Part shown: positions 12,716-56,599 of the stretch, one piece after another | How the letters are laid out: every line of letters begins with the position of its first letter | Position numbering within the stretch: the stretch's first letter is position 1 | NCBI GenBank assembly: GCA_001724265.1 | Contig: MEDY01000374.1 | Span: 1 to 58,259 of the forward strand | Source: Rhizaria sp. SCN 62-66 | Taxonomy: Eukaryota | Reading direction: 5' to 3' | DNA length: 58,259 bases | Notes under the pieces: generated by a model | The model's input: only the letters and a program-made list of their open reading frames with translations | Databases searched by the model: none | What the model was told of the DNA's origin: nothing | Made by a program: the position numbers and the translations under genes

Positions 12716-15700
12716 ATGAGCCGCTCGGGCTCCGTGGTGACCCTGCAGATTGGGCAATGCGGCAACCAGGTCGGCACCCACCTGTTCCACACGCTCGCGC
12801 GCGAGGCCGCTGCGGCGGGACCCGGCGACCTGCAGGACCGCATCTTGCACCAGTTCTTCCGCGAACCGGTCTCCGCGACCGAGCGCGCGGCTGCTTCGAC
12901 CTGCTCTTCCGCCGCCGCGACTGCTGACGGGCTGGCGGCGCCCTCGGCGGCCGGGCTCCCGATTGCGCGCGCCGTGCTCATCGACATGGAGCCCAAAGTG
13001 ATCGGCGACGCTCTAGCCTCCGCGAGCAGGTCCCCGCTGTGGCGCTACTCCCCCGCGCGCACTTTCTCGCAGCAGTCCGGCTCGGCCAACAACTGGGCCT
13101 TCGGCTACGCCGTGCACGGGCCCGCGCACGAGGAGCGCATGCTCGACACGGTCCGCCGCGAGGCCGAGTGCTGCGACACCTTCGGCGCGGCGCTGCTGTT
13201 GCAGTCGCTCGCGGGCGGCACCGGCAGTGGCGTCGGCACCTATGTCAGCGAGCGCCTCCGCGACGAGTACCCCAAGGTGCAGCTCGTGAACCAAGTTGTG
13301 TGGCCCTACAGCATCGGCGAGGTCATCGTGCAAAACCTCAACGCGCTGCTCTCGCTCGCCCACCTGCACGCCGCCTCGGCTGGGCTGCTCGTGGTGCAGA
13401 ACGACGCCGTACACAACATCGCCGTGCAGACGCTGGGCATTGCGCGGCCCAACTTCGATGATCTCAATGGCATCATCGCCACTCACCTGGCCTCGGTGCT
13501 GCTGCCTGCCTTCCACGCCGTGCCCAACACGCTACCGCCGGCCCATGCAGGGCAAATGCCATTGTATAACAGCGCTGATAACGGCAGCGCTGCGTACGCG
13601 TCGCCGTACTATAGCCCTTACACGGACCCGGGGCACTTACCCGCATGGGCGAATGCGTACAGCGGTAGCAACGGCAGCACCACTTACGCCGACATGGCGT
13701 CGCTGCTACGCTCTGCAACCGCTCAGAGCAGCGCCACTAACTCCGTGAGCTCCCGTTGCTTGTCGCTGTCCGATATCACGGACCACCTGTTCTCACACCC
13801 CAGCTACAGGCTGTCGTCTTTGTCCGCGATCCCGAATGTAAGCCGCAGCGCACAGCGGTTCGAGGCCACGACCTGGGGCTTCGTGACGCGCCACCTCCTG
13901 CAGGCACACATCACTCCGGGCCACGCGTTCGGGACCAACCCTTACAGCACCAACATGGGCGGCGGCGGCGTGAGTTCTCAGTCACATTCGCAGTCTGATC
14001 CGCACGACGGTGAGGGCGCAACTGACCGTGAGCAGACAAGTGACCGTGAGCGCCTGAGTGACCGTGAGCGCGACCGTGAGCGTTACCAAGGCGCCAGCGC
14101 CGTGAGCGCGGGCGGCTTCGGGGCCGGCAGCGCCGCGGCCGGCGCCGGGGCCCGCGCCCGCCGCGCCGCGGCCGCGGCCGCGTCCGCGCGCAACGCGCAG
14201 CGGTACATTGACTGGGGCATTGAGCTGGGCCGCCCCTGCCACCTGGACGCGGGGTCGAGGCTCTTCGCGCCGCCGCCTACTTACACCGCCGCGCAGGGCA
14301 CTTACACCGGGGCGGGCGCCTTGAATTCGAGGCTGCACCCTGGCGCTGCCGCGACGGCCAGTGCTTTTTGCGCTGGCTCTAGCTCGAGCTCTAATGCGAG
14401 TGCGAGCGACAACTGCAGCGAGAGCACTCGCCAAGCGACGACGTATAAGAACGATTTCTATGATGGCAGCGAGTTTTGCTATGAGTTTGAAGAGGACGAG
14501 GAGGAGTGGCACCGCTCTCTCTCTAGTTCGTATAACAACATCAACAGTCACAACAACAACGATGACTACGACGATGATGCTAGTAATGACGCCGACAGCA
14601 ACAACAGCATCAGGCACGGAGGTGCTAACTCCCATTCCCAGTCTGGCCAGTCTGGCCAGTCTGGCGCGACCGGCCGGCCCTCGTATCACAGCGCGCGCGT
14701 GCCCCGCTTTGCGCCGCGCCCCTCGGCCGCCTCTGCCGCCGCCGCCGCCCGCTCCCGCGCCCGCCGCTACGGCGGCAACAACAGCAACAGCAACGGCGCT
14801 GGCACTGGCAATGCTGCGAATGAGCACGGCAGTGCTGCGCTGTCTCCCTCGGTGGGCAGCCGCAGCGGCCGCGGACCCCGCGGAAGGGCTTTTTTTGGTC
14901 CCGCGTCTCGGTTCCAGTCCGTGCACGGGTTCTCCCCTGCAATGCCATTCACTCATGGTACGTTCGACAGTGTGAGTGACAAAGCGACAGTCGCATGCGA
15001 CGACGACGTACTAAATCACTGTTTGATGACTTTAATGGACCTTATAGTTGATAAATTTGATAAAGCCGATTTATTGTATCAATAATTGTTTTCCAATTTA
15101 TTTTTACTCACATTTATTAACATCTTTTTCTTTTTCAATTCATTCCCAGGCTCCGCCAACCACGCCGCCGCCACCCGCGCCCGCAGCGGCACCAGCAGCG
15201 CTGTCCCGGTGGCCGACAACACCGCCGGCTCCCGTGGGAGCGGCGTCGGCGTCGGTCTAACCGGGGTTGGCATGGGCAGCGACTACCACCACCACGGGAG
15301 CAGTCGCGCTGCGTCCGCATTCGCGGGGAGCGAGTTCACGGTGGCTATGACTCCGTTCGAGCTGGCCGGCATCCTCGAGGCCGACGCGGCCGCGCTCGCG
15401 CTCGCGCACAAGCAGCACAACAACAACGCTAAGTCGAGCGCGCAGCAACAACAGCAGCAGCATCAGTATTGCCGCGACTTCTACTCCCCGTCCGCGGGCC
15501 TTACCAGCGCCCCCCCCGACGCCGCGCCCCCAGCCAACAAGTCTCTGGCAGCGTACCTTATCCTACGCGGCGACGGCGCCTCGGCGGCGCTGGCAACGGC
15601 GGCGCTGGGCAACGCCACGGCCGTGGCGGCGGCGGGGGGCGGGGTCGGCGCGGCGCCGTGCCACACTGCGTACCCCGCGTTCACGCCCACTGCGGCGGCC

Positions 15701-16610: not shown

Positions 16611-18002
16611 TCAGTCAAGCCCGTCAGCGCGCCCACCCTGCTTGGCTTGCTTGAACATGACCTTGCGGACGATGATCATGAGGATGAACAGCGAAATCAG
16701 CGCCACCAGTATAAACGGCAGCTCGGACCGCGGCCGCGGCGGCTGCGGAGCCCGCGCCCGCTGCTGCTGAGGCTGCGCTGCTGCTGCTGCTGCTCCCGCG
16801 GCTGCCGCTGTGGCAGGCGCCCGGTGCCTGCGCTTGCGCCTCTCCGTGACCTCACCACCACTCGCCGCAATAGCAGCGCCAGCAGCGCTCGCGCTGGTAG
16901 CGGTATTGGGAGTGGTCGTCGCACTAGCACTGCGAGCAGTCGTCGCAGCAGAGTTCGCGGCTTGATTGTCGTTCTTGCTGCTGTTAGCATAGTCTTCGCT
17001 GTCACTGCTATCTGAGCCAGAGCCAGAGGCAGAGGCAGCAGTGGCGCTAGAGCTCGTGCTCGTTGTGCTGCTGTTGCTGTTGCTGTTAGGCAACACAGCA
17101 GGAGCAGGACTCAGACTGCTGCTACTGCTACTGCTGATACTATTACTGTTATTGCTAACAGCAGTTGTCGCAGTTGCAGCAACAGCAGGAGCAGCAACAG
17201 CTGGGGCAGCTGCGGCGGCAACAGGAGCCGGGGCAGTAGCAGCAGCGACAGCAGCAGCAGTACTGGCAGCGCTCTCGCTCTCAGCAACACTCGTACTCGC
17301 ATTCGCAACAGCAACAGCAGGAGCAGCAACTGTAGCAGCTGTGGCAGCAGTGGCAGTGATCTCCTTCTTGTTCTTGTTCAGATCGCTGTTGTCAACGTCC
17401 GTCTTGGCCGCCAACGCCTCGGCCTGCTCGCTAGTCATAACGCCGCCGCCCGCCGCGCCCGCGTCTGCGTTGGCGCCGGTGCTGGCGTCGGCGCCGTCGC
17501 CGGGAAGCAGGCCGAGGTTTGACTCCTCGCACGTCGGACAGCACCAGTCTGCCGAGAGGCGCGCCAGCTCCTTGCGCTCGGGCTCGCCCCAGTCCAGCGC
17601 GCCCACGGCGTTGTCGCCCGGCGTGGGGAAGAAGGCGATCAGCGCGAGGAGCATCTTCTGGATCGACCACGAGGGCTGCCACTCCTCTGGATGGAAGCTC
17701 GAGATCGACAGGCAGACCTTCTTGTTGAGCTCGAACCGGCCCGAGGGCGTCAGGAAGAGGATGTCGGGCGGGCGGTAGGGATAGTCGGGGGGCAGGATGA
17801 GGCGGCCGTGGTAGCGTCCGCCGGCGAAGGGCGAGTTGGCGGGCCCGCGGATGGTGAAGTGCCACTCGAAGAGCGACTACTCGAGCGGGTACGCAGTGAA
17901 CATCGGGGACGGGTTGCGGCACATCTCGCGGTACTCCGCCTGCAACCGGCGCACCGCCACCGAGGACGGGTTTCCGCCCGCGCCGCGCTTCTTGTCAGCC
18001 AT
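16611..18002 (-). CDS. UBE2J1: Tail-anchored ERAD ubiquitin-conjugating enzyme E2 J1 (Ubc6e/UBC32-like), 463 codons including one in-frame TAG at codon 42 (17879-17877)
   Basis: Manual translation from ATG 18002: AVRRLQAEYREM...AYPLE*SLFEWHFTIRGPANSPFAGGRYHGRLILPPDYPYRPPDILFLTPSGRFELNKKVCLSISSFHPEEWQPSWSI, continuous with the 347-aa ORF. The catalytic Cys is intact and there is a C-terminal TM helix (LPFILVALISLFILMIIV). Stop is TGA. Confidence 0.9.
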
Positions 18003-18578: not shown

Positions 18579-19917
18579 ATGATGAACCACGTCGAGTTCC
18601 AGCAGCAGGAGAACTACGACCCGAAGGCGCACGCCGAGGCCGCGCAGGCCGCCGCGCACTCGGCGGTCAAGACGGCCGCGGCGCCGCTCACCGTGCCGCG
18701 CACGCTGGTGCCCAGCACCACCGTCGTGGGCGGCAGCTGGCGCCCCTCGGTTACTGGCCGCTGCTCGCGCCCCTGGCGCCTCTCGGACTTCGAGGTCGGA
18801 CGCGGGCTCGGCCGCGGCAAGTTTGGCTATGTCTACTTGGCGCGTGAGAAGAAAACCCACTACATCATCGCGCTCAAGGTGCTGCTCAAGAAGCAGCTCA
18901 ACGACGCTGGCGTCGAGCACCAGCTGCGCCGCGAGATCGAGATTCAGTCCAACCTGCGCCACCCCAACATCCTGCGTTTCTTTGGCTACTTCCACGACGC
19001 AGACCGCGTGTTCCTGATGATCGAGTACGCCGCCAAGGGCGAGCTGTACAGGCTCCTGCAGAACAAGGGTCGCTTCGACGAGGCCACCGCGGCGCGCTAC
19101 ATCCTCTCACTGTCGCGCGCGCTGGACTACTGTCACTCGAAGCACATCATGCATCGCGACATCAAGCCCGAGAACATCCTTGTCGACGCGTGCGACGAAG
19201 TCAAGATCGCCGACTTCGGTTGGTCGGTTCACGCGCCGCAGAACCGCCGCGGCACGCTGTGCGGCACGCTCGACTACCTGCCGCCCGAGATGGTCAACGG
19301 CGAGCGCCACACGCACGCCGTCGACCTGTGGTCGATCGGCATCCTGCTGTACGAGTTCCTTGTGGGCACGCCGCCGTTCGAGGCGCCGACGCACAAGGAG
19401 ACGTACCGGCGCATCGCCAACGTCGACCTTCGCTTCCCCGCGCACGTGGGACCCGAAGCGCGCGACCTCATCAGCCGCGTACGTCGACCGCCCGCCCGCA
19501 GATATATACTCGCTAAAACACACTCACGCACATCGCTTGAACAGAACCTTGTCGACGTATGCGCAAGTTTTGATTGTCTTTATGTGTGTATTTTGATGCT
19601 TTGCATTTGTATATTGATTTGATTTCCTGATTATTTCCGCTAATTATGATCTTTTTTTTTTTGTGTGTGTTCTTTTGTTGTTGTTGTTGTTGTGTTCCTT
19701 ACAGCTCCTGGTCAAGAACCCGCAGGACCGGTTCAAGTTCAGCGATATTCCCACGCACCCGTTCATCGTCAAGAACCTCGTCTCGACCTCGCGCGGGCCC
19801 GCCGCGCAGCAGCAGCAGTACCTTCAGCAGCAGCGACAGCAGCAGCAGATGCAGCAGCAGGGGCAGGGCTACGGGGTTAACGCCGGCCCCCCGCCCCCCG
19901 CCGCCGGGCACTATTGA
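18579..19917 (+). CDS. Aurora-family Ser/Thr kinase; exons 18579-19478 and 19705-19917, about 370 aa
   Basis: [59 protein letters not shown] and [16 protein letters not shown] are Aurora signatures. The splice ARDLISR|LLVKNP completes subdomain XI. Stop is TGA. Confidence 0.95.
19479..19704 (+). other. Spliceosomal intron in Aurora kinase (226 nt, phase 0), containing a (TTG)n microsatellite
   Basis: GTACGT donor, GCTAAT branch-like motif near 19639, T-rich tract, ACAG acceptor. Confidence 0.9.
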
Positions 19918-37522: not shown

Positions 37523-37561
<39 letters not shown>

Positions 37562-39295: not shown

Positions 39296-42200
39296 ATGTC
39301 CGCCATGGCGCGCGGTTTCGACATCCGCGCCTTCACGGCCCCCGGCGACGGCGCCTCGGACGACGATGACGCCAACGACTACGGTGACAACAATGGCACC
39401 AGGACTGGCAACGACTCTTCAGACATCCGCCTTGGCACGATGACGACGGCGGCGGGCGTTGGCGCGCACACCGTTGGTTACAACGGCCCTGCTCACAGCG
39501 ACGACGACGACGACGATCACGGCGACGGCGACGGCGACGGCGACGGCAGCAGCGATTTGGACCTCGACTTCGACCAGTACAACCCCGACAGCGTTATCAG
39601 CGGCGCTAGTGCCGGTAAGGCGGGCATTCTGAACAACCGCAGCGCGCATAGCGCCGGTGGCAGCGGCGGCAACACTAGAGCGCGCCACAAGCAGCAGCTG
39701 CAGCAGGGACACAACCACTGCGCCTGCCTCCCCTGCTGCGGCGGTGGCAACAGCACCAGTTCTAGCACAAGCGGTCAGCCGCAGTCAGCGTGCGTCCACG
39801 GCTTATATTTTGTTCTGCATCTGCTCAAGACGGCGGTACTCTCGCTGCCGGTGCTCGCGGTCACCGCGCTCGTGCTGTATGACTGGCGCCTCTTCACCTT
39901 CTCCTACAGCCAGTGGTCGCCGCTAGCCCCGCTCGCGCTGGCGCCCACGATCACGTCCCCGCTGCTGACGCTGCTGTACTGGGTGTACTTCCTGGTCTAC
40001 CAGTGCGTGATCGCGCTTATCCTCGTCAGCTACTTCCGCACATGGCTAACGTCCAACTCGCTCTCCGCCAACCCGCCCCCCGCGGGCTACTTCCGCGAGC
40101 TGGCGCTGCGCCTGACGACTGTGCGCGACAGCGTGCGCCAGTACCGCCAGCGCGCGCTCGCAGTGTGGTTCGCGCAGAGGCAGGCCGCGCGCGCCGTCGC
40201 CACGGCCGCGCGCGCGCAGCGCAAGGCGCTACAGCAGCAGCAGCCGCAAGGGCAAGAACAGCAACAAGAGATGAACGCGAGCTCTAGTTCTAGCTCTAGT
40301 TCTAGCTCTAGTGTGAGTGCAAGTGCGGCTAGGGGCGGTGTGAACGCGGCCAACGTGAGCATGGCCAGCGCGCTGTCGATGCTCGGCGCCCCCGCACTGC
40401 GCAACAACAACAACACCAACAACAACAGTAACCACACTGCGACGACTGCGAATGCGGGGAATAACGACGTTGACGCTGACAGTGATAGCGATAGCGAGGC
40501 CGACATGCCCTTTGTGGCTCCGATTCCCCCTTTACCGGTGATTCTGCGGCCGTTTGCACCGCACGTGCACGCCTCGGACTTCGCCGAGATCAAACACTGC
40601 CGCCGCTGCCCCGTGCCGGCCCCCGCGCTGCTGCCTCAGCTTACGCTCGCGGGCGACGCCACGGGCGCCAGCAGCAACGCGGCCGGCGACTGTGAGCATC
40701 AGTCGAGCCAGGGTGACCGTGAGCAGGGCCTGCAGCCGCTGAAGCCGCCGCAGACGCACCACTGCTCCGTGTGCGGCGACTGCATCCTGCGGCTCGACCA
40801 CCACTGCCCCTGGGTCGCCAACTGCGTCGGCCACAGGAACTACAAGTTCTTCGTGCTGTTCGTCATGTACGCCGCGCTCGGCTGCTGCCTGCACACACCG
40901 GCCAGCTTCTCCACGGTCAAAACCATCTTCGACCAGCCGCCGCCGCTGAAGAAGGCCGGCGCGGGCGCAAGCAGCAACGGCGCGGCTGTCGTCGGGGCTG
41001 CGAACTACGTGCCCGGTGTGTCCAAGACCATCGGCGACGTGTCCCGGCCCGCCAAGTCCTTCCGTCCCCAGTCCCTCGGCAGTGTGTTTGCCCCGCTGTC
41101 CACTTCTGAGTTCCACTCCTTGGCCTCAGCGGCTGCGCCTGTCCCGGCCACTGTGGTCGCGGGCGGCTTCAGCGCCGACGACTTCGCGTCCGCATTCGCT
41201 CACGACCGCGCCCGCCTGCTGCACCTCAAAACCACCGTGAAGCAGCCCGCGCACACCCACGCGCTCACGGGGCCCGCAGCGCACGGCAAACCCCTCTCGC
41301 AGCCCCACACGCAGGTGTACCTCTCGTCGCTGCAGTTGGCCGACGCGGCCTCGGGCGCGGGCCCGCAGCTGCCGCGGCCGGCGCGGCTGCCGCTGCCCGC
41401 AATGCCCGCCACGCGCGCCAACTACATCCGCTCCCGGTTCGCCCACTTCGAGCGCCATTGGTGGACCGCGCCCATGAACCCCGTGCTGGCGGCGCGGTAC
41501 AAGGACCCCGCGGCTTACCTTCTGTCGCTGCCGCCGGTGACCGCCAACGCGGTGGCACCGGGCGGGAATGTGGCCGGTCACGGGCAGTTTGCGTCCGTCA
41601 CGGGCCCCGTCTCGGCGGTGACCGTGAGCACGCTCACGAGCGCGGCGGCCGTGGCGGCGGCCGAGACGGGCTCACCGGCGGCCGTCGCGGCCAGCGGGGT
41701 CGGCACCGAGGCGACCGGCGTTTGGCCAGCCGTGCTCTCGCAGAGGGCCCGGGGCGCCGCAGCGGGGCACTTACACGCCGTGCCGGCCACATACACTCCC
41801 CCCGCTGCCACTGCGACTGCCGCTGTGCCTGCGCAGGGACAGGGTACTTACACTGGTGTAAGTGCCGGCACCGGTGCTCCTGCCCCTGCTGGCTACAGTG
41901 CGAGCGAGATTGCTGCTGCCGCAGCTGCCGGCATTGACATCTCCATTCCTCATAGCTACGCTAGCACTCCATCAACCGCGAGTACCACGAGTACGAGTAC
42001 TTACACTGGAACTTACACTGGTACTAACACTGGGGGCGCTGTGCTGACTGGCAATGCGGGCGACCTCCTGCTCTACACGCCCCACGTCAACAGCAACGGC
42101 GACGGCGCGAACGCTGGTGGCCTGACTTCCCCCCTCGGCGGCTTAACTTCCGGCGACGACGCGGCTGACGAGGAACGCGCTCCCGAGTTCGCGGCTCTGC

Positions 42201-42733
42201 TGTGCGGAGTGATCACGACCGCGTTCGCGGTGATGCTGATGTGCTTCAGCGCGTTTCACTGGTCGCTGATCTTGTCGGGTGAGACCACGCTCGAGTCTGT
42301 CACCGGCACCGGCAAGAACGGGAAGAAGAAGAAGAGTTCTAACGCCGACAGCAACGAGCTGTCGGACGTCGAGGCCAACCAGGGCATGCTTGCCGCCAAC
42401 GACAGCGACAACAACGACGACGACGACGACGGCTACAACGACAGCGGCGACACTGCGGGCCAGAGCAAGGGCTCGCGGGCTCAGCAGCCGCCGGCGCCGC
42501 CGGTGCCGCAGTGGCGGCGCAACGTGTGCGCGGTCTTCGGGCCTAATCCTTGGCTGTGGTGGCTGCCGGTGGCGACCGTGAGCGCGGCAGAGCTCTACCC
42601 CATGGTGCACCCGGTGCTACTCACGCCGCTGCCCTCCGTCGGGGCAGTTAGGCAGGCGCTCGCCGCCGCAGAGGCGGAGGCCGCGGCGCGCAGCGGCAAC
42701 AGCAATGGCGGTAACGCAGCGAGCCAGCTGTAA
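39296..42733 (+). CDS. DHHC-type protein S-palmitoyltransferase (ZDHHC2/15/20-like) with large insertions, about 1145 aa
   Basis: [40 protein letters not shown], TTxE motif (ETTLES), PaCCT-like [19 protein letters not shown] and four TM segments. First ATG at 39296. Stop is TAA. Confidence 0.92.
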
Positions 42734-43429
42734 CGTCAACAAGATCTTGTAGATTTAGACTGCGAGATGAGTTTGGATCGAGTTATATATATAAGCAGGG
42801 GAATTAATTCTTTATATTGAGTATGAATGTGTTACATAGATGTCAATCAAATTCGGTTATGAGTGCGTTTGATGCGATTTAGCGGCTGCAACTGGCGTTT
42901 GTGGTTCCCAGGGACCGAAAGCTGACTGCAGTGTCAGCAGAATACAAAAAGTCGCGACTTTGAAACTATCTTTCGTCAACCTAGATCAAAGCAACGACTT
43001 TCTATAGTGATTTGAGTTTGTGATATTATCTTTTTAATTATCTTTTTCGAATGTTCCGTCTTCACCTGATTCCAGCTTGCGCGCGCGTCGGTTCTCTCTC
43101 AACGGCTTGCACCTTCACTCCCGTCACTTTTTCCCTTTGCTGCGCTCTATCAGCTCGCACTTTTACGCAGTTTAGGCGACCAGCCGATTTCAATTGCACG
43201 GGATTCTTTATTGGTTGCACACACATTTGTTGCCAGTCTCCCCCTGGCCCACAAAACTCTATCTCCGCCTCTCAGGCCTCTCGCGACTGCTGCAGAGCAA
43301 TCTCTCCCCACAGCCGCAGCAGCTCAGTCGCAACAGCAGTATTGGCAGCGGCCAGGCTAAACTCTAGCGCGCCTAATGCCTTATTTGCGCCCGGGCGCCC
43401 GCGCGCGCCTGGCCCAGACATGGCGTGCC

Positions 43430-46400
43430 ATGACAACGTATATATTCCTGCTGTTTCTGTTGCTGCCGCACACGACCTTGTCAGTCAACCCGTCGCATCA
43501 CTTGCGTTACACCGGCAACGGCAACGGCAACGGTCGCGGCAGCGGAAACAGCGATGGAAACGGTAACGGCAACAGCGGGCACCAACATGGCGCGCGCAGC
43601 GCACAGCCACATCAGCAACCGCAACGTCAACCTGGTGCAAGTTCTACAAGCTATGCGAGTTCCGCAAGTTCTCACTCAGGGCCTCGGTCGAGCGACTTCA
43701 CGTTCATCAAGCTCGCAACGGGACACATTGCTGCGTACCTTACCCCGCCCGTGGCCGCTGCCGGTGCAAGTGCCGCGCCGGCCGATCTGAGTGCCCCCGT
43801 CGGCGTCGCCCCAGCGGAGCTATTGTGGGTCCGCGATCCCAAGACTCTGATCAACCCGCGGTCTGAATGCTTCCTGCTCTCTCCGTCAACGGCGACGACG
43901 ACGCCGACAACAGCTGCATCCGGTTCTGGCTCTGACGCTGGTTTGCGCCCCAGTTCTACGTCCAGGGCCGGTGGCAATGACGATGACGCGGCGGCAGGGT
44001 CGACCATGTCACAGTCTGAGCCACACACCGCGACCGGCACTGGCCCTCGTTCTACCTCTAGCTCTAGCCATCGCTCTTCTGGGCTTGATACACGCGAGAA
44101 TGAGGCCAACGCGAACGACAACTCTAAGGCCCCGCAAGAAACACTGACCACAAGAACAGCAGCGACTCCGTCCTCTGCGACTGCGACTCCGACTGCGACC
44201 GCTGCCGTCGCCGCGTACTCCCCGCCTGCCGCCGCCGCTGCGCCCCGCGCGGCCCCGCTGGTGTTGGTGCAATGCGCGTCTGGCGTCACGCTGACGGCCG
44301 CGGCGCCGCTGCACCTGCACCGCGCCTGCGCAGTCATGCAGAGCGCCATCGCCCCCACACCTGCCTCGGACCGTAGCGCGAATGCGCAGGCAAATGCGCA
44401 GGCGGCGAGTGCTGACCGCAGTAATAACAGGGCGTTTGCCGGCGACAGCGGGCTTGAAATGGCGGCTTACGTTCGCGACAACAGCGCTCTCCGTGGCAAC
44501 GGAGTCGGGAACAGTAACAACAATAATGACAACAAGCAACAACAGCAACAGCCGAAGCAGCCGAGCTTCAAGCAGCAGCAGCAGCAGAGGCGTGGCGCTG
44601 CTTTCACTGCTGACAGCGACGACGGCGATAACGGCGCTTACATCGGCGGCGCTGGTAGCAGCACGGGCGGCTTTCTTTTCTCTCTGGACGGCTTAACTTA
44701 CTCGCGCTCGGTGGAGACGTATCCTGTCGCGATCAATGCTTTGACCGGTGACCCTCTTGATAATGACATTACTCACGGCCACTTTAGCAAGGTTAACAAC
44801 AACAGCAACAACAACAATGATCGTAACAGCAACAGTGCTTTCAGCTCGAGCTCGAATTCTGGCGCGAGCTCCAATGGCGCTCGTGACACTGCCAGTGCCA
44901 GTGCCAGCGCAAGTGCGAGCTCTCATACGGGCGATGATGCGGGCGACAACGCGGCTGTAGTGCACCGCCTGTGGCTGCGGCGCACCGCGGTGACCGTGCG
45001 CGCGCGCGACCCCGCCGGCCGCGTGCATAACGTGCTTTGCCACGACACTGTGGAGCTGGAGCTCGCGCCGCAGGCGGCGGACGCTGAGCACCTGTCTGAG
45101 TCCCAATCTGGGGCGCAGTCTGAGTCGGGTGCTCACAGTCACGGGCATTTTGGCACTCGTTCGAGTGGCGACTCTAAGAGTCAGAGCGGCGATCCCAGTG
45201 AGCGTGTTGTTCTGCCACCGCTGTGTATGTTGGTCGAGCAAACTGATTTGCTTTCTGCGCAGACTCCAGACACCAGCGCGAACAGCGACATGAAGAGCCA
45301 AAGCCGCTCTACAAACAGTCATTCTGACGCTGACACGGGCGTTAGTCACATCTCGTACCCATTCTGCCCGCACACGCGCAGAGATTCGCGGCTTAACTTC
45401 GACCAGTGTCTTGCTGAAGTGACAGCATCGTCGACAGGAGCAGCAAAGACGGCGAGTGTCGGTGCTGCGAAATCTGCAGTTGCAACTGGGGAAAGTAGAG
45501 CCGGTGTAGTGACCTTGCCTCTGCTGCCTTCTGCGACTGGTGTTGATGCTGATGCTGTCGCAGTCACCGTTGCACATATGTTGCACGCTAAGTCAGGATC
45601 TAAGAGTCCCAACACAGTCGCGAGCACGAAGGTTGCAGATCCGACTGCAGGAGTCGGAAGCAAAGATGGAGCATCAGGCGATAGCGCTGCTAAGCAACAA
45701 CAGTCAGAGTCACATTCTCAGCGGTTGCACTCAAGGTCTTCACAGCCACAACCACAGTCTGCCCGGTATGTGTTGGTGTGTTCACAGAGCATTTCACTTA
45801 CTTCTGAGGACTTTTTCGGTCCCGCAGTCACTGCCAACTCTGCTAACATAAACGCGACTGCTGCCAATGCTGCCACTAAGAGTACTTATTCTGCCGACCA
45901 CGCTGCCGCTTCTGAGTCCTCGGACTCAACGTGCGCTGTACCCACCCACTCGAGCGGCCCTGCGTGTCACGTACTAACATCGTTCATGGACTGGCACTGC
46001 CACAGCTCCTTACATTCCGGCGGCATTTTCAACAGCACGATCGGCGATGCATCAAGTCGTCCCGGCGTTAGTGCGAGCTCTAGTTCGAACGTCGCCGGTG
46101 ACTTTTCGTTGCCCCGTTCCAACACCCGCGCCTACAGGTCTCTGCTGCGGCAACTGCGCGCCCCCGGCGGCGTTACGGTGATTGCTATCTCGGATACACT
46201 TGCGACCGCAGCAAACGCGGCTGCCGTAGGCGCTGCTTCTGCGTCCAGTTCTGTTGCCGGCAACGGTGCTGCAGCGACCGATGCCGATGCCGATGCAGAC
46301 AAGAACAGTGCGAGCGTTGTTGATGGTGCGACTCCTGCTGCCGACAGTGGAATTGTGCTTGTAGTCACAGCTGACAACGGCAATAGCAACGCCAACACTC

Positions 46401-49400
46401 AGATTCCTAAGATTACTCACAAGACCAGCGACAACGCCAACACAGCGACCTCTGACTCTGGCGCAAGCGACACCGAGAGTGAGGGTGATGTTGACAACAG
46501 CGGCAGTCGAAAAGCAGCTGTGGCAGCATTCTCACCACAGTCACTTGTTTCAGTGTCTCGCGGCACGTTTGCTGGCAAAGCGATGACGTTGTCGGCAACA
46601 TCTCTGAACGCTGTCAGTACGTACCATGCTGATCAGCATGAATCACACGAGGTTCAAAAAAGCTCGACTCCTTACATTGACGATCCTTACGGATTCCCTG
46701 ACTCCGACGACGACGGTGACAACGGCACTAGCGATGACAATCACCACGATTCTAGCCATGGTAGCGACACACGCAGTAACGATGTTGTTGTGGCGATGAC
46801 TGTTGGCTCTCGTGAAATGCCGTTTGTATATGGTGTTGCTGACACGCTCACCGTCGCAAAGCCTGATGTCACTGTTACTGCCACTATGCCAACAACCTCA
46901 ACGATTGTCCCTCGATTCGGCTCTGGCTCTGACGCCGCCGAGTCCATGTCTGACTCTGAGTCCGGCTCCGCTGTTGTGTACATTGGCAGTGATTCCTACG
47001 CGTTGCTTGCGCGGCTGCTTGAGCTCTCCGCCCGCAAGCTTGCCGCTGCAGCCTCAGAAGCTGCAACAACTGGCACTCGTCCTGGAAAGGGGACTTCGAC
47101 AGCGACAACAGCGGTGCTGCCGTCCTATTTCCCGTTGCACCCGCTTTCCGCTGGCAGCTCCATGAATTCAAGCAAAACTAGCGATAACGACCACGCTACG
47201 CGCCCTGGAGTTAACTCAAATACCAACAGTGATAGCACTGACTTTGACATTCAAAACCGGTTGCCGTTGCCTCCTCCGTCGTAGTCGTATTCGCAGTTAC
47301 AGGCGCTGCTGCCGCCGCCGCCGCTGCCTGCGCGCTCCCACGCGGCCACCCTGACATCTTACTTAGCCCCTTATAGCACGTTTGCTTTTGAACCGTCGAA
47401 CAATCTGTACAAGACATTTTTCGGTCCGACCGCTCCTAGTGATGGCGATATCAACAATAATGTTAAGTCTGACGAGAGCGACATTGTGGGTAATCTGCTC
47501 TTGCGACCGCTGGCCCTCGACGCTTGCGACTGCGCGCGTGTCAAGACCGACGCTACGGCATCATCATCGACCGTACGCTCTGCCGCGGCCTCCGTCTTTG
47601 GCAAGTCAGCGACGACGATGACGAAGGCGGCAGCGACCGCCGTTGATGCGGCGTCTGCGCTGGGCACTGGGAGGATTACTTCGGCCGTTGACTTTGACTC
47701 TGAGGCTATGCTTGCAGAAGTGCAGGCTTTGACTGACTCTGCTCTCGCAGACTCCGCTTTATTCGACGATGAGACATTCAACACTGTGATGTCTCGGCTG
47801 GCTGAGCTGACTGAGCAGCTCACTGCCGTTACCGATGCCACGACGAACAGCCATAGCCGCAGCCGCAGTCGCTCAAACAGGGGCAACGATGACAGCCAGT
47901 CGCTTACTGTGGTTGCTGCTGCTGGGGAGAACCTAGTCAAGTCTACAAAGTCGACACTCACTGACGGTGCAAGTACCTTTGGTGCTGGCGCTGGTAGCTC
48001 ACGTGATACTCCAAGTAGTCTTGGTTTCGAACTCGAGCTGGTGACGCACTACTTAGACGACGAACCTTTACAACACGATCACATGCACGATGGCAACACC
48101 GGCGCCGGTACTTCTGCGGCCCACGGTCGATCTGCGAACGCTAAGCCGTCTCCAGCAGCGGGCCACATGCCCCTTGAGGTCCTAGCGGCCGCATCTGCCT
48201 CCGCCGCTGGCTCTGCTATGACCGCCTCCAGTGATCGTGACCGCAGCGGCAGCGTTGTTGACGGCAGCGCAGTTAGCTGGGATGCACTTATCGCTCGCAA
48301 GCAACAGCTGCTGCAGCTGCTGCTGTCTGCGCGCGCCGATGCGTGCGCCTGTGTCTGCGCCTGCGGTCGCCGCTGCCGCGCAACTGCGGCTGCCGCTGCG
48401 AGCTCTGAGCGGTTTGCAGTGGCTCAGCGCGCGACCAGTGCCAGTGGCGGCGTTGGTCTTAGTGTAAGTGTGAGAGTCAACGGCGACAGCGATGCTCGTC
48501 TGACAAGGCCTCCCGTTGACGGAAATGGTGACGCTGTTGAAGATATGGGTGCCGTGACGAAGTATATTGATGTTGTCAGCTATAGCGATGATGACATCAC
48601 AAGGATCAATAGCGATGGCGACGATAACATGTATTACTCTGACTATAGTGAAAATGACAGTGACGGTGATGACTATGATTACGAGTCTTTGCCATACTGC
48701 GACTCCAACGTCATCATCACGGCGACGACAAAGCCAGCTAAAACGGCTACGAGCAGTCCTCTTTCTCACACCAACAAATACTTGAATAGCCAGAACCATT
48801 TGGAGCTGGAGACGTGTGCTGCCCCTGATTTAAGTCGCAAAAATTACTTAGATTCAGACGCAACTGATAGTTGCCCTATCGTGTTCCGCACTTTGCCGCC
48901 CGAGCCGAAGACCAAGTCAAGCTATCCGTCATACTTAGATGGCATCGATGCTTACACGGATATTGACTTAGATCTGGACTTGGACGGCGCAAACGAAGAC
49001 GACACCAAGGACGACGACTCTCGGAGCGCGTCTAAGGGTGTAAGCGTCAGTGACGAGATGTGCATTGCTCCGTTGCACCCCGACGCTGAATCCGACAGTG
49101 GTGATTCTGGAGCTAATAACAATGACGATACTCAAGACTACAGCATGCCTTCTAGTTCGCGCTCGCACTCGCACTCGCGCGCGCTCTCGCACGCGCACTC
49201 GCGCTCGCAGTCGCAGGCGGAGGCGGATGCGGAGGACGACGGCGTGATCGAGCTGGGCGACGACTGGGACGACGTTCCGCTCTCCGCGCTGCCCGTGGCA
49301 GTGTCCGTGGCCGCAGACGGCCAGGTGACTGTGGGCAGCCAGCACGCCGCTGGGTCCGCTTCCAACCCGGCATCAACGTCAGCAGGAGTCACTGGGAGGA

Positions 49401-52400
49401 TCACTGACTCTAGTTCGAGCGCTAGCGGCAGCCCGGGTAAGCCACTGCGCTGCCGTCCCCGCATTCGCACTCACAGTCACGATCAGTCGCGCCACGCACG
49501 TGCTCGTTCCCGGACTAGTCGCGGCGGCGCCCAGTGCCTCCATACAGCCCACGGCCATTCGGCTCACGGTCAGTGCGCGCCCCGCATCGCGGCCTTCGCG
49601 CAGTCGGCGCTCGCGCTGTCGGTGCCCGCGGGCTGTCTGGCCGCGTGTCCCGCTCGCTGCGGCCGCGCGCGCTCGCAGGTCCTGCTGGCGCACGCGCACT
49701 TGCTCGCGCTCGCCAAGATCGAGGCGCGCTTTGCACCGAGGCAGCAGGCTGGCACCAGCTCTCGCACTGGCGCTGGCGCTGGTTCGAGGTCAAGTGATGA
49801 TGTTGCAAAGGGGTATTACTGTGCTGCGATCGACATCAGCGAAGGGAAGTCTCCACAGTCGCCCACAAGTGCCGATGACCTTCGCGGTAAGTGTCCCGCG
49901 GCGCCTCAAACGGTTGGCGAGGGCGATGGAGACATCGACACCAGCACGCTGTCCCAAGGCGGCCTGACTTCGCAGTCCTCCGCGGGTCTGATCTCGCGCC
50001 TGCTGCTGCGCTGGTCGCATCGCAGCCCGCTGGCGCGGTGGCTGCACACGCGCTCCCAGTCGACCGCGCTTGTGCTTGCCCGCACGCGCACTGCGCTCGT
50101 CACCGCGACCGCGCGCCTCGGCGCGGGTGCCGCGCGCTCGCAGTGGACGCTCGCCGCGGCGCTGCTGGCGCTGGCAGTCGTCGCGGCCGCGCTGCGCAGG
50201 GCCGCCGCGGCGCAGGCGGCCGCGGGCGCGGACTGGGGCGAGGACCCTGAGGCCGCGGCCAGGGCCGGCGTCACGGCTATGGCCCCGTTGGCGCCCGCAG
50301 CCACTGCGCTCACGGTCGTGGGCAACAGCGATAGTAGCAGGAGTAGCAACGCGACTGCGAATGAGACCGTTGTTGTTGCGTTGATTGTCGGTGACGATGA
50401 CGGCTTTGTGTATTCGTTCCCAACAGTCGACTCTGTTAACACCCCGGCTGGTGATGAACAAGCACCCGCAGACTCTCTCAACGCTGCCGGCGCTACGAGT
50501 GATGATATTCGTGCCGATCTCTCTGCTTCTGTTGCTCCCGTCGCTGTCCACAGCTCTGCCGCAGCGCCCACACCGCTGTCCTGCTACTGGCACGGCGCGC
50601 CCGCGCTGCTGCAGCGCCGCAGCAAGGCCTTTTGCCCTCCGCAGGCGCTGTGGCAGTCGCGCGCGCTTGCAGCCGCCTGCGCCGCTGAGGCTAACGATGC
50701 GCAGATGAAGGTGGAGGCTAAGGAGGCACTTACACTTCGATCCGCTAAGGCAGGCGCACCGGTCTCTAGCGTCCATCACAGTCACAATAGCTCAAGTTTG
50801 AGCGCTGCTATTGCCGGCTCTGGCGCTTATCCTCACGCCGGCGCTCGTGCCAGCGGGCGCGTTACGATGGCTCTGCTGCAGCTGCTGGCTCTGGCCCGCG
50901 TGGACAAGGAGGCTGCGCTGCTGAGGGCAGCTGCGGCCGGCGTCCCAGTTCTGTCTGCCACAGTTGCGGCCGCGATGAGTACTGCGTTGGTGACGGCATC
51001 GGCCTCAGGCTTGCCCGCAGTCGACGGAGGTAAGCAACAGCAGCGTGGCCGCAGCCGTGGTAATATTGGCGGCAGTGGCGGCGGTAGCGGCCGTGGCAGC
51101 CGGAGCAATAGTGGACACAACACCCCGTTGAGCTCCCCGGGGCGGCACTTGAATTCGCAAGTCAACGGCGCCGGCATCGGTGTCGCTTCCAACAACACCA
51201 GTGACGCACTGAGTGTGATATTGTCTGCTCGCATTTCAACGCCAGGCAACAATAACTCGAACGCTGGCACAACTCATAGTTCCGGCGCTGCTGGCGCTGT
51301 AAGCGTTGCCACCACGTCTATCAGCGGCGTGATGCCGCTGCTGGCCCTGCTGCAAGACCGCAGTAGTGCCTACTTAGTGCTGTCCGCGCACCTACCCCTG
51401 CTGCCGCATCCTTACACTTACGGTTTCAGCGCTCATCACCCCTTGAGCCGCACAACAGGTTTCGCGCCCTCGCGGCGTCCGCAGTCGATTATGCGCTACC
51501 GGCTAACTGCCAACTCGCCCTTGCTCAGCACGTACGCTGGTGCGGGCGCAATTTATACTCACGGCGCGAGGGGCGCGGCACTGGGCAGCGACAGCTGTGT
51601 CGCCGACGCGCCTGTGTCGCTGCTGGCCGCGGTGACAGCGCTGCGCTTTGTGGCCCACGTGCACTCTACTGTCTTTGCTCCTGACTCTGGTCACAGCAGC
51701 AACAACAATAACAACGGTAGCGCGAGCAGAAACAATGACATTATTTTTAACACGAATGGTGCTCTCAAGTCTGCGTGTGGAGCTTTTGGCAACGCGGACC
51801 CGGTTGACTGCTATGGCGCCGCTCACGGTCTGTATCAGTCTCTTACACCTGTAAGTAGTCGCTTTGCAGTCAGTTCGCACAGTCATCGCACGCTGCTGTT
51901 CCCTAGCCCCGCTGCATTGTCATGGGCGCGCGGCTTAACTTACGCCCCCACGGCACACCACCGCGCCGCCACTACCGCGGGGCCCTGGGCAGCGGCGCTC
52001 GCGGCTGCGCTGCCCGCCGCGGTGGCCGCCGCTGCCGCCGCTGCAGCAGCCACCGCGAGTGTGACACAGAGCGACGCCGCGCGCGCGACAGCAGCGAGCG
52101 CTAGCCTGACGACGATCCGTGCTGCTGGCGTTTCGGGCGGGCCCGCGCCGCCGCGGCCGAACTTCGACTGGGTCCCCACGCTGCTGAGCGTGTGCCGCGG
52201 CGCTCTCACGGCGGCGGCGCGGCTGCACGTGACCGTGGGCGCCGCTCACGGTCATATCTGTCCCAGGACGCTGCTGCTCACGCCGACTACCGCGGCGGCC
52301 GCGAGCGCCGGCTCCGTGGCCAGCGCTGCGGCGGCCACGGCGGCCGCCGCGGCGGCGACTGCTGCGGTTGCTGGCAACAACTCTGGTTCTAGTTTTAGCT

Positions 52401-55400
52401 CTAGCTCGAGTTTTAAGTCGAATGCCAGTTCAAGCTCTAGTTCTAGCTCGAGCGCTGGCTCGAGCCCTTTGGCTGGCGTGACTGCGGGCAGCGCCGCAGC
52501 AGCGACTGTTAGCAGCGTGTGCGCCGCTTGGGTGGGCACGTCGCCCGCTGACGTCAGCGAGTGGACGCTTACACTCACGGGGCTTGAGGACGCGGCTTAC
52601 CTGATCGATGACGAGGCGGCTTTTTTCAAGAGCATCCGCCGCAGCACCACCTCGAAGAAGAAGTCGGTCTGTGTCAATAAGGACAAGAGAGGGAGTAGCT
52701 CTAGTAGCAGCGCTGAGCATGATGAAGAGGCCGCTTTACTGCAAGACTTTTCTTTTTCTACCAGCACGACCACTGGTGTTAATGCGACTGTTACGAGTTC
52801 TGAACTTACGGTTGGTTTCTTAGCAGATTATGCGTCTGACGATTTTTTCGGTCCCGCACTGGCCCTGCTCGCTTTGCCCGAGTCAGAACCGCGCTCGCCG
52901 TTTTACTCGCTGTCACAGTCGCAGCCACGGTCGCCGCTCGAGCTTCAGCCGCTGCAGTCCTCGTCGTCTCTGTCGCAGTCCGAGTCGGAGTCGCAGTCGC
53001 AGTCGCCTGTGACAGATTCCGAGTCGGACCCTGCCTCTTCTTCTGCTGCAGCGACTGCGGCCGTGCAGCTCCCGCCGTCAGTGCCGCTGCCGTCGCGCCG
53101 AGTGCTCGCCGTTGCGAACGCTCTCCTGGCATCACTTTTACCGCCGCCGACGCACAACGCCAACGGCAGCGCTAGTTCTTATAGGAGCACTGAGCAGAGC
53201 TCTATTGATGCTGCTGCTTCGATCAATGGCGATGCTGGTAGCACTGCCAGCGTGCCTGTGTCTCGCGCTGTTGCCGCCGCTACCGCTGCTTTGGCGTTCA
53301 CTGCGCCCGAAGTCGCCCTCGCACGGCTTAACTTCCTGTCGGGCGTGTGTCTGTGGGTGCAACGGGCCTTATTGGCCGCTGCAGCGCGATATCGGGCCTG
53401 TGACGGCAAGTTGCAGCCGCAACAGGGGACACAGCAGGGGCAGTACTTAGACAAGAATGGAGGCATTATGTCTCGGAACAACACGTCAAAGTACACCTTA
53501 TGCAACTATTGTAGCAAAAAATCCTCATCGAAGCCGCACTTGCTGTCTCCCACCACCTCAACCGACTCGCACTACACTGTGCCGTCTCTGCCCTTGCTCC
53601 CGGCGCCCACGGTTGCCGCTGACTCCTACTCTCTGGGCTGCTGCATGCACTTCATCTTCACGCGAGGCGCGCTTCCGTACACTTACAGCGATGGTACTTA
53701 CACTGGCACAGAGAACGGCGAGTCATCAGCGAACTGCTCACACACAGACAGCAGCAGCAGCAGCAGCAGTACTTCCATCACTGTGAAGCACTCGGCGTCG
53801 TGTCTGTCTTGCCGCCTCCGCTGCAGTGCTGCTGCGGTGCTGCGCCTGCGCACTCGGTTCCTCGCCCCGGTCACCGCGCGCGTCGCCAGTCGCCGTCCGC
53901 TGCTGCCCCCGCTGGCGACGCTCGGTGCGAGCTTCTCCGCTGCCACTGCCGCTACGGCGGGGACCGTACACGGCCAGTCTGCGGCTTGCATGGCGGCGCC
54001 TCTATCAGTGGTCACGGCGATCTCGCCCACCGCTGTGCTGCTGCAGGGGGCATACACAGCGAAAACTGCACATGCGCTGCCTCACAAAAACACCAATGCG
54101 GAGAGCACCCATCGCTCAGGCATCAGCTCCAGCCTTAGTTCGAACGGCATTGTGGCTGCGGCTGCAGGGGCCGTCACCTTCCCCGACGGCCACATTTCTG
54201 CCAGCGGCATCACCCACTCCAGCACTGGCGCTGCTTCTGCCTTGATATCCCCCACTGCGGCGCTGTCACACCTCCCGCCCACGGTCGCCGCCGCGGCCGC
54301 GCTCTCGACCGCCACCGCCGCCGCCTCGGCCGACAGCGCGGACCCGTTCTCGGCGCTGCCCGCGGCCTGGCAGGGCCTCCCGGCCTCGGTGGCGGCCCCG
54401 CTGGTGCATCTCGTTGGCCTGCTTACTGCGCGCGCGCCGCGGCGCCGGCCCGCCCCGCTGGCCGCGCTGCAGCACCCGCTCTTCTGGCCCGCAGAGCGCA
54501 AGGCCGCGTTTCTCGTGCACGTGTCCAACCTGGCCGCCGCGAGGCCCAGCGGCGGCGCCAACAGCGGCAACAGCAACAGCAACAGCAGCTGCAATACCAG
54601 CGCCGGCGGTGCTGGAGGCCAGGTGGGGCTGTGTGCGCCGCTGACGGCGGGGTACCTTGACAAGACCAGCTCAAACACGACCTCCGAGACTGCTGCTGTT
54701 GCTGCTGCTGCTGCTGCGGCTGCTTCTGCCTCTGCGGCGGCGCTGTCACTGCCACTGCCCTGCGCTGCCGTGCTCACCGGCGCTCTGGAGCGGGGCGCCG
54801 GCTTGCCCCTCACCGCTCTCGCGCACTTATCCGTGCCCCCAGTTCATTCCTCGACTTCAGCCCATGTTGCGAGTGCGATTAGCGCGGTCAATGCTGTGGC
54901 ACCCGTGGGCTGGCTGCAGGCCACCACCCCGCCGTCCGTGCTGCGCTTGCTGCTGTCCTCGCGCCCCTTCACCGAAAACAGCATAATCGAGACGCTGCGC
55001 TTTGTGAGGAACCGCGAGGCGCACTCCAAGGACGCCCCTTCCGAGAACCTGAGCAACAGCAGCGGCGGCGGCAGCAGTAGTAGCAGCAGCAGCAGCAGCG
55101 TGGGCGCGACTGACGCGGACTCAGGAGCCCTTAATAAGACCCCGGGCGCCACTGCCGGCGCCCACGGTCTCTCTGCGGTCTCCACAGCTGTGCCGAGCTC
55201 CGCGGCGGCCTCCCCGAGCGCGCAGGCGAGGCCGCCCCCCGGCCAGAGCTCGTTCCGCGAGCTGGTGGGCAGCGGCAGCGCGACGGCGGGCCGCATGCGC
55301 TTTGTTGAGGCGCGTCTGCCGCTGCTGCTGCTCTCAGTCTACACGGCCGCCGCCGCGACTCTGCTCAGCGCTCGCGGTCACGGCGGTCGCGGTGCCGCGG

Positions 55401-55798
55401 GAGGCGGCGGCGCCGTGCGTGACAGGGCGTGGGTTGCTGCCGCGGTCGCCAGGTTTGCTGAGAGGGCACTTAAGACGGGTGATTCAGGAAATCTCAGTGC
55501 GGGAGGCGGTGATGTCAGTCGTCGGAACTCTAGTGCTACTGCGTTTGCTGAACGCGAGCTCGATATCAGTGACGGCTATTGTGAAGACGAAAGTAACGTC
55601 GGGAGCAACGACACTGACAACGACGATGATTCGACTGCTGAGGCGGACGATGACGAGGATGAGGACGAGGACGAGAGCGAGAGCGAGCCAGTGACCGTGA
55701 GCGCGTTGACTGTGTCCGAGGCGGGCCGAGAGGTGGCCGCGTTTTTCGATTTTGTTGATCCTGCGATGCTCAATGCACTGCAGCAGCAACACTGGTAA
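43430..55798 (+). CDS. IRE1: IRE1-like transmembrane (pseudo)kinase / KEN endoribonuclease, about 4120 codons with one in-frame TAG at 47282-47284
   Basis: Signal-peptide-like MTTYIFLLFLLLPHTTLS. Luminal-domain-like fragments SLDGLTY...AINALTG and LWLRRTAVTVRARD. TM-like segment near 50144-50200. Kinase C-lobe APE, ADSYSLGCCMHFIFTRGALPY and RRRPxxxxALQHPLFWPAERKAAFLVHVS. KEN segments SIIETLRFVRNREAH and ARLPLLLLSVY. ORFs 43376-47284 and 47486-55798 share one frame with only a TAG between them. Stop is TAA. Confidence 0.8.
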
Positions 55799-56069
55799 CT
55801 AATCGCACTTCTGCGAACTATTTTTATTGATTTATTTTGATCTGCGAATTACTTAGACAACGAAATACATTAGAATTATTTTATATTAATATTTTCTACG
55901 ATTCATAGATGAGAGCATGGCAATGAAATGAAAGACGAAGAATATTGCTGTAAGCTGCTCCATTCAGTCATCATGGTGTTCTTCAAGTTCTCTATGTCCA
56001 AGAAGTGAAACAGTTGCAACGCCTGCTCGTTCGATTATGATGTCTGAAAGACCGTTAATACAAAGTTGT

Positions 56070-56426
56070 TCTAACGGCTATACACAAACCGCGATCAATC
56101 ATTGGTTTAAACAAGACTGCCCTAATCATGCTTACAAATTACTAAAGTTACACACAAATGCAGCGTCATATGAACTGCGCGAGGCAACTTGAACTTCGAT
56201 TAATTTCGATAGTTGACATCGTTTCAGTGCTATTTGCATCAAGGTCAAGCGACCAAGCTATGAATTTTCCTTTACACAGCATGCCGTTTTGCACGACTGA
56301 GTTGATATTAGTATCTCGCGTCACATCGAGCTGCCTGCATCAGGAGACGGTCGATCAAGGATAACGGCTGGCTTCGATCGTTGAACTTTCATATGTTGTA
56401 TCTCTACATAATCTCCGTTATTTGAA
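56070..56426. promoter_or_regulatory. Candidate MSA/CHR-like promoter motifs upstream of the 56600 ORF
   Basis: TCTAACGGCTA (56070-56080) matches YCYAACGGYYA fully. Also TAACGGCT (56362-56369) and CCGTTA directly followed by TTTGAA (56415-56426). Confidence 0.35.
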
Positions 56427-56599
56427 ATGCCACAACAGTTACAAACTTTGACATTGTGGATTAATATAATATTTCTTTTATAACTCTACAGTGTCTTACT
56501 ATTATGAATTGGGACCTTGTTTTTGCTTCGTCTTGTCCCAGTCAGTCTCTCTTTCGACACACATCAACTATCCATCTTGCCTCAGGCTTGCAGTGCACG

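Follow-up and report, generated by a model that had tools for sequence, protein, structure and literature searches.

Does the lone TAG that interrupts one very long reading frame of contig MEDY01000374.1, filed as Rhizaria sp. SCN 62-66 (assembly GCA_001724265.1), end a protein, or is it read as an amino acid? The whole contig of 58,259 nucleotides (nt), here called the window, was analysed, and the frame in question belongs to a gene whose C-terminal part resembles the kinase/RNase IRE1. We propose, as the probable answer, that UAG is translated as a rare sense codon, most plausibly for glutamine (Gln), within a single IRE1-like gene. UAG appears to be decoded because two lone TAGs lie in otherwise intact genes of the window, with no equivalent TAA or TGA, no frameshift and no gene that ends in TAG; an organism that keeps UAA and UGA as stops while decoding UAG is the best reading of this pattern. 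The elements of the locus are as follows.

47282..47284, plus strand: lone in-frame TAG, context ccgtcgTAGtcgtat, within a degenerate hexamer run TCGTAG TCGTAT TCGCAG
43376..55798, plus strand: IRE1-like gene, 12,423 nt, 4,140 codons plus TAA, with the TAG as codon 1303 and sole interruption
43376..47281, plus strand: part of the gene before the TAG, 1302 amino acids (aa), with hydrophobic N-terminus MTTYIFLLFLLLPHTTLSV; no homologue detected
47285..47617, plus strand: stretch from the TAG to the first ATG, 111 codons with a coding-like score in the gene's frame
55796..55798, plus strand: terminal TAA of the IRE1-like gene, followed by an AT-rich spacer (GC 0.38)

On the plus strand, positions 47282-47284 read TAG in the local sequence cct cct ccg tcg TAG tcg tat tcg cag. 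Two stop-to-stop open reading frames (ORFs), 43361-47284 (1307 codons) and 47285-55798 (2837 codons, closed by TAA), share one frame, and the only stop between them is this TAG. An earlier interpretation made from the letters alone (the sequence-only reading) had described same-frame ORFs parted by a single TAG, and our analysis confirmed it, with no further stop in between. Frames of 1307 and 2837 codons are far beyond chance, because about 2.8% of random codons would be stops (probability ~0.028, worked out from the base counts of the window). A coding score, defined as codon-usage log-odds and trained on the large ORFs of the window, was 0.32 bits per codon and equal for both halves of the gene. 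The encoded protein is of very low complexity (Ala 17.5%, Ser 14.8%).

The same score bears on whether the locus is one gene or two. If two neighbouring genes lay in the same frame, a secreted or membrane low-complexity protein would end at the TAG and an IRE1-like kinase/RNase would start from a downstream ATG. Such an arrangement is consistent with the lack of any homology joining the halves and with the database gene models, which split the locus into P0001, a 1302-aa protein ending at the TAG and 100% identical to the upstream part, and P0002, a 2526-aa protein that starts at ATG 48218 and represents the downstream part. The coding signal nonetheless continues without a break across the TAG: the 40-codon score in the gene's frame was 15.9 and 11.1 bits on its two sides, and 30-codon windows at 47330-47450 scored 15.2-30.3 bits, against a gene-wide mean of 13.9 (sd 9.5). 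The first in-frame ATG past the TAG is at 47618, 111 codons on, and the stretch before it is coding-like in the same frame, so that coding-like sequence precedes any possible downstream start. Moreover, the true spacers that flank the gene, 42734-43375 (GC 0.47) and 55799-56464 (GC 0.38), measure ~640-670 nt and score negatively in all frames, and every other gene boundary in the window likewise has ~600 nt of AT-rich sequence closed in all frames. The 96 nt past the TAG have a GC content of 0.65, and neither an AT-rich spacer nor an AT-rich island was seen near it. A standalone downstream gene would also have no N-terminal signal sequence. We therefore regard two genes as very improbable, and the earlier claim of a single gene stands. 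Used alone, the coding-score screen would be of limited specificity, as it also flags three antisense TGAs.

The strongest independent evidence comes from a second gene, about 30 kb away, that is interrupted in the same manner.

16611..18002, minus strand: UBE2J/Ubc6-type E2 gene, 463 codons plus TGA, with ATG at 18002 and a C-terminal hydrophobic tail
17879-17877, minus strand: second lone in-frame TAG, codon 42 of the E2, context ctcgagTAGtcgctc, within the UBC fold between helix 1 and strand 1

The gene encodes a tail-anchored E2 of the UBE2J/Ubc6 type, with a UBC core, the catalytic Cys, UBE2J1 proteins as best named matches and the tail LPFILVALISLFILMIIV. In the minus-strand ORF 16611-17876, the match to the Pfam family UQ_con begins only at profile position 27. 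Upstream of that ORF the translation reads MADKKRGAGGNPSSVAVRRLQAEYREMCRNPSPMFTAYPLE, then the TAG at 17879-17877, then SLFEWHFTIRGP and onward, and when the TAG is read as X the UQ_con score rises from 55.8 bits (profile 27-113) to 70.2 bits (profile 1-113). The PDB sequences of Ubc6 (E 5e-40) and UBE2J2 (E 9e-38) align across the TAG without a gap and with the catalytic Cys in register, placing X opposite D in Ubc6 and S in UBE2J2. Exactly one residue occupies this column in all 80 metagenome loci (D25 T25 S18 E6 A3 Q2 G1) and in all 120 database proteins (D34 N27 S17 H17 T15 E8 G2), and it is polar or small in 200 of the 200 homologues. Since codon 42 corresponds to one residue throughout, and no intron fits within a single codon, splicing does not explain this site; the TAG must be translated, be changed in the RNA, or be lethal to the enzyme. 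Re-initiation would be unable to rescue the enzyme, because the next Met lies past the catalytic Cys. The earlier claim that TAG is decoded instead of terminating is thus supported, and strengthened by this one-residue column in the UBC core. The best identity of the E2 to any of 5.8 billion database proteins is 62%, and matches of 51-62% identity are spread over diatoms, chytrids, Mucoromycota and animals. As a side observation, both TAG-bearing genes belong to quality control in the endoplasmic reticulum (ER), one being an E2 of the type used in ER-associated degradation and the other IRE1-like; as there are just two sites and one falls in the window's largest gene, the link may be coincidental.

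Stop-codon usage in the rest of the window points in the same direction. The 12 gene ends that could be scored (those of the WD40 protein, tetraspanin, CEP44, a small START-like ORF, the tubulin-family gene, the E2, the Aurora kinase, two unknowns, the gene of 3.9 thousand aa, DHHC and the IRE1-like gene) comprise seven TAA and five TGA codons and no TAG. Among 18 coding-like ORFs, the only one that ends in TAG is the upstream half of the IRE1-like gene. The 12 coding segments, together 14,373 codons, contain no in-frame TAA or TGA, no stop besides the two TAGs and no frameshift, and the two TAGs are the only ones found in frame on the sense strand inside genes. Other TAGs were considered and set aside: that at 26910 belongs to the AT-rich 5' leader that precedes ATG 26964 of the next gene and is not in-frame coding, and those at 4191 and 2846 closely precede a start codon or an exon, in leaders or introns outside coding sequence.

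We then asked whether the target TAG could be absent from the mature message, either through a frame-preserving intron such as 47281-47376 or through editing of UAG to CAG or to UIG (read as Trp). Two introns verified by homology served as references.

14958..15149, plus strand: intron 1, tubulin-family gene, 192 nt, GTACGT...CCCAG, GC ~0.32 (computed on 14971-15150, almost wholly within the intron), supported by protein homology
19480..19704, plus strand: intron 2, Aurora-type kinase gene, 225 nt, GTACGT...TTACAG, with a long T-rich tract, after ...DLISR

The in-frame TAA of the tubulin-family gene falls within intron 14958-15149. Enumeration of the 712 GT...AG intervals of length 3n that span the target TAG yielded none that was convincing. 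Use of the sole strong donor within 1 kb of it, GTACGT at 46617, would cost the gene 750-1134 nt that score well as coding, and the remaining 3n candidates have a GC content of 0.54-0.59. The organism's intron profile (GTACGT/GTAAGT donor, AT-rich body, pyrimidine tract, YAG) does not describe the best of these candidates. The 96-nt interval 47281-47376 (GTAGTC...TATAG) is present and has a CTGAC some 20 nt ahead of the closing TATAG, which speaks for splicing; however, its donor matches GT[AG][AC]GT at three of six positions, its GC content is 0.65 and its core is a Pro-coding (GCC)n tract, whereas both verified introns have GTACGT donors and the tubulin intron a GC of 0.32. The sequence-only reading had already judged this intron unlikely from its donor, and we concur. 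As for editing, the minimum-energy fold puts the E2 UAG into the loop of a 9-bp hairpin. A UAG in a hairpin loop is the kind of site edited from A to I in some fungi. Yet the folds at the TAGs are no more stable than those of shuffled sequences, Trp occurs at the E2 column in none of the 200 homologues, and no differing letter is listed at 47282-47284 in the RNA run, whose listed contigs do not bridge the site. With an intron impossible at the E2 site, removal or alteration of the codon in the mRNA is distinctly improbable.

Sequence data from other samples address the integrity of the codon itself. The stretch was found in bioreactor, wastewater and activated-sludge metagenomes and in one polyA metatranscriptome, the last with about one fifth of the words of the window, and four public runs were placed on positions 38260-58259. 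An 870-nt contig of runs X2/X3 spans 47110-47979 with 0 differences and 0 gaps relative to the window, TAG included. X2 and X3 have identical contigs and depths and are probably one data set filed twice; X2 shares its study with the probable source sample, or is close to it. The TAG is therefore no base-call slip of one assembly. That the TAG is a sequencing or assembly error is hardly credible: depth in the public runs is low (~4-7x), which favours an error, but the identical sequence occurs in an independently assembled contig of another sample, frames of 12 kb stay open without one frameshift in the assembly, and the second in-frame stop of the window is again TAG.

A true premature stop, i.e. 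a nonsense allele fixed in the assembled population, would leave a 1,302-residue product only and 2,837 codons as an orphaned or re-initiated remnant. The TAG is one mutation from TCG, CAG and TAT, all of which occur in the local hexamer run, and gene callers split the locus in a way that fits such an allele, as they would for two genes. In addition, the fit of a contig from run X4 (1049 nt, 2025 run) covers 46265-47276 and ends 5 nt before the TAG, with 37 letters unplaced. This end was not counted as evidence of a variant because a second X4 contig breaks off likewise at 39490/39491, where a trinucleotide repeat is masked, and because (GCC)n begins at ~47304. Against a nonsense allele stand the TAG in the intact and conserved E2, 30 kb off and independent, since two recent hits are unlikely given no TAA or TGA and no frameshift in 14,373 codons, and the presence of the target TAG in samples dated 2015-2017. 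Strain differences point the same way. Downstream of the TAG, four of five substitutions are synonymous third-position changes (53137, 53614, 53731, 54079) and one is a replacement (48465); small as these numbers are, they fit a translated, selected frame, and the downstream half of the IRE1-like gene looks selected. Upstream of the TAG there are two replacements. We consider a nonsense allele quite unlikely. Run X4 also has an in-frame 6-nt deletion at 52989, within a GAGTCG-type repeat; this deletion and the scattered synonymous single-nucleotide differences indicate at least two strains, in different studies and years apart. No joint at the target TAG was found among the 15 joints listed (117 more are unlisted), and the listed joints were disregarded, as all of them link low-complexity repeats. 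Contigs of RNA run X5 lie on both halves of the gene, e.g. at 43495-43738, 44256-44521, 49410-49669 and 54051-54413, although contigs in an RNA library are no proof of transcription.

Both TAG sites share the flanks G-TAG-TCG, a feature that raises the possibility of programmed, context-dependent readthrough (G-UAG-UCG): UAG would still be a stop, and some full-length IRE1-like protein and E2 would nevertheless be made. The common flanks, with G before and TCG after, form a neighbourhood found at only 1.07% of codons, and in-frame TAG is very rare, two in ~14,375 codons; both facts are in keeping with readthrough. On the other hand, a leaky stop as early as codon 42, within the E2 core, would make most rounds of translation futile, TAG stands at none of the 12 gene ends, and no stable RNA structure was found at or downstream of either TAG (z-scores 1.41, -0.11, 0.58 and -0.43). 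Known leaky contexts include UAG-CAR-YYA and UGA-CUAG, and G-UAG-UCG is not known to be one of them. Programmed UAG readthrough in standard-code organisms is of the viral gag-pol and tobacco mosaic virus (TMV) types. The window resembles these systems in having a single UAG within a long open frame, but differs from them in its lack of downstream RNA structure, in its codon context and in having one site at codon 42 of an enzyme core and not at a natural C-terminus. Readthrough is thus unlikely in our judgement.

If instead UAG is a sense codon, which residue would it specify? In the genes of the window, TCG comes next after 33 of 485 CAG codons (6.8%) versus 2.4% overall, and the full context G-CAG-TCG accounts for 19 of 485 CAG codons (3.9%) versus 1.07% of all codons, three of 338 TCG and two of 335 GAG. 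Codon context therefore weakly favours Gln. The sequence-only reading had preferred Gln on this ground; the comparison of 3.9% with 1.07% lends it modest numeric support, although TGG has the same bias (4 of 93). Its statement that TCG-CAG-TCG is very common was overstated, as CAG fills three of 13 TCG-x-TCG triplets in the IRE1-like gene and four of 25 in the big ORFs. The E2 column, being polar or small in all 200 homologues, argues against Leu, Tyr and Trp and makes no choice among Gln, Glu and Ser; an aromatic or aliphatic residue at UAG is therefore unlikely.

Based on these data, we propose a plausible mechanism. In this uncultured eukaryote, UAG would have been dropped as a terminator and come into use as a very rare sense codon, with UAA and UGA remaining stops. 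Its decoding would call for a UAG-pairing tRNA, with a CUA anticodon or in the form of an efficient near-cognate tRNA-Gln, and for a release factor eRF1 that is blind to UAG. The ribosome would then read the TAG at 47282-47284 as an amino acid, for which Gln is the best guess and Glu or Ser are possible, giving a highly divergent IRE1-like protein of 4,140 residues.

Several known nuclear codes offer precedents. In Iotanema spirale, UAG encodes Gln, UAA and UGA are stops, and 204 in-frame UAGs were counted in 126 genes with no UAG terminators (PMC5304391). The window is alike in having in-frame UAG in conserved genes and never as a terminator, UAA as the commoner stop, and UAA and UGA never in frame. 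The organism studied here differs in being GC-rich and free-living or sludge-associated and in a best E2 identity of only 62% to any database protein. The sainouroid rhizarian 'exLh' reads UAG as Leu (PMC5304391), and phyllopharyngean ciliates, another case of UAG-only reassignment, read it as Leu or Gln (PMC11687900). These lineages share with the window that only UAG is reassigned while UAA is kept as a stop, and that they were found in meta-omic data of uncultured organisms; a Leu code is unlikely here, however, since aliphatic residues occur in none of the 200 homologues at the E2 column. A 58-kb multi-gene contig with GT-AG introns also sets the present organism apart from the phyllopharyngean ciliates. 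Ciliate macronuclear DNA is not known to be arranged in this way. Codes in which UAR (UAA and UAG) encodes Gln are listed for Amoeboaphelidium, hexamitin diplomonads, oxymonads, some green algae and many ciliates (PMC5304391). When eukaryotic nuclear codes reassign UAG, they most often do so to Gln, and a CAG-like context is seen here too, but TAA in the window is clearly a stop, closing seven of 12 genes and never occurring in frame. In open-access text we found no report of UAG reassignment outside Iotanema, the sainouroid rhizarian, the ciliates and the groups with UAR codes.

Some observations weigh against translation of UAG as an ordinary Gln codon. The usage is sparse, with two in-frame TAGs in ~14,375 codons, affecting two of ~12 genes in 58 kb, as compared with the 204 UAGs in 126 genes of Iotanema (PMC5304391). 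The absence of TAG from 12 gene ends is only suggestive, with a chance of ~0.07-0.01 if TAG ends 20-30% of genes. An ordinary sense codon has no need of the shared G-TAG-TCG flanks, for which the chance at the second site is ~1%, and context-dependent suppression may be at work. Gln itself occupies the E2 column in only two of 200 homologues, and a search of the window yielded no tRNA gene whatsoever. The E2 TAG (17879-17877) lies outside the range of the read comparison, none of the listed X5 RNA contigs bridges the target TAG, and the end of the X4 contig at 47276 could be a strain difference or a low-complexity cut. Finally, the surroundings of the target TAG are without a homologue in our searches, so that alignment evidence at this site is nil: two word-indexed protein searches (600-aa and 275-aa queries) returned no homologue across the TAG, a HMMER scan of 1.84 billion representatives with a 1200-aa query returned only the window's own two split proteins (1302 aa and 2526 aa), a Joint Genome Institute (JGI) metagenome scan for the region gave 230 pattern matches of which 0 were confirmed, and an exact 32-mer from the window was absent from genome_contigs and viral_contigs.

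A more specific version of the proposal, which we put forward tentatively and hold to be possible though short of probable, is an early stop-codon takeover, in which UAG has gone as a terminator and is just returning as a sense codon, rarely used and probably for Gln, in a GC-rich and otherwise standard-code genome. If true, the locus would be a natural snapshot of the intermediate predicted by 'codon capture' models, which is seldom observed. UAG-only nuclear reassignment is known from few lineages, and a further independent case would be a data point on how stop codons change; this one would be informative for lying outside the ciliates, in a GC-rich genome in which UAG is extremely rare. 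There is a practical side as well. Gene callers that apply the standard code split the IRE1-like gene into two database proteins and truncate the E2, so that eukaryotic bins from wastewater that contain this organism would be mis-annotated.

What kind of protein does the split gene encode? Three segments of its C-terminal half bear on this question.

50150..50206, plus strand: best candidate transmembrane segment, LAAALLALAVVAAALRRAA, at residue 2259, with a Kyte-Doolittle 19-residue mean of 1.92, the second highest of the protein
54389..54529, plus strand: end of the kinase C-lobe and start of KEN, ...RRRPAPLAALQHPLFWPAERKAAFLVHVSN, matching solved IRE1 structures in a PDB phmmer search
54929..55045, plus strand: sub-threshold Ribonuc_2-5A (KEN) match, RFVRNREAH, PF06479, E 0.0025, 18.4 bits against a cut-off of 23.3

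The PDB phmmer search with the C-terminal 1266 aa had IRE1 structures as all 16 of its best matches (E 2e-4 to 9e-3, over ~47 residues at the kinase/KEN junction). In contrast, three large pieces of the protein gave no Pfam match at E < 0.01, and Pkinase was not matched in Pfam even at E 10, the only trace being a C-lobe fragment of 1.9 bits in the PDB alignment. The designation 'IRE1-like' made in the sequence-only reading is consequently supported in part: it holds at the kinase/KEN junction, where the PDB matches lie, while PF06479 stays below its cut-off and Pkinase gives no match. Its mention of luminal fragments found no backing: neither 43376-47281 (1302 aa) nor 47285-51997 (1571 aa), the stretches before and past the TAG, has Pfam or PDB similarity to a luminal stress-sensing domain or to anything else. 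The N-terminus of the protein is hydrophobic, and the transmembrane candidate is ambiguous, since Ala makes up 17.5% of the protein and several segments reach similar scores.

Compared with IRE1/ERN1 (3fbv, 2rio, 4yz9 and other structures), the protein shares the pattern HPLFWP..K..FL..VS at the junction of kinase C-lobe and KEN, the R-N-x-x-x-H motif, which here falls in the sub-threshold KEN match, and a hydrophobic N-terminus plus internal hydrophobic segment that would be compatible with a type I membrane protein. It differs in being ~4 times longer, with huge low-complexity inserts, in having no Pfam kinase match and no similarity to the luminal sensor, and in being probably kinase-dead by eye. 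The last point refers to 52247 (plus strand), HGHICPRTLLL, where HGH stands at the place expected of the HRD catalytic loop and no DFG is obvious by eye. We take this HGH to be the HRD equivalent from the by-eye comparison of motifs, so that the kinase is probably inactive. The sequence suggests a pseudokinase joined to a KEN-like domain, and as a whole the product is best described, from similarity, as a putative, very divergent IRE1-like kinase-extension/RNase protein whose N-terminal two-thirds appear to be orphan sequence.

The remaining genes give some indication of the host. Besides the two TAG-bearing genes, the window encodes CEP44, a tubulin-family protein with large inserts, a double-propeller WD40 protein, a tetraspanin, an Aurora kinase and a DHHC palmitoyltransferase. 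Matches of the Aurora-type kinase come from all kingdoms. This gene content marks the organism as a eukaryote that bears centrioles; its coding sequence is rich in GC, its spacers are rich in AT and its introns are few. The tubulin-family gene (12716-16177, plus strand; Pfam Tubulin 1.7e-40) has ~1,100 codons, inserts rich in Ser, Ala, Gly and Asn, and one intron. A giant single-exon ORF of 3,906 codons occupies 26964-38684 on the plus strand, with a GC content of up to 0.77 and one borderline LRR_6 repeat as its only Pfam match. Judging from these sequences, giant low-complexity proteins seem typical of this genome.

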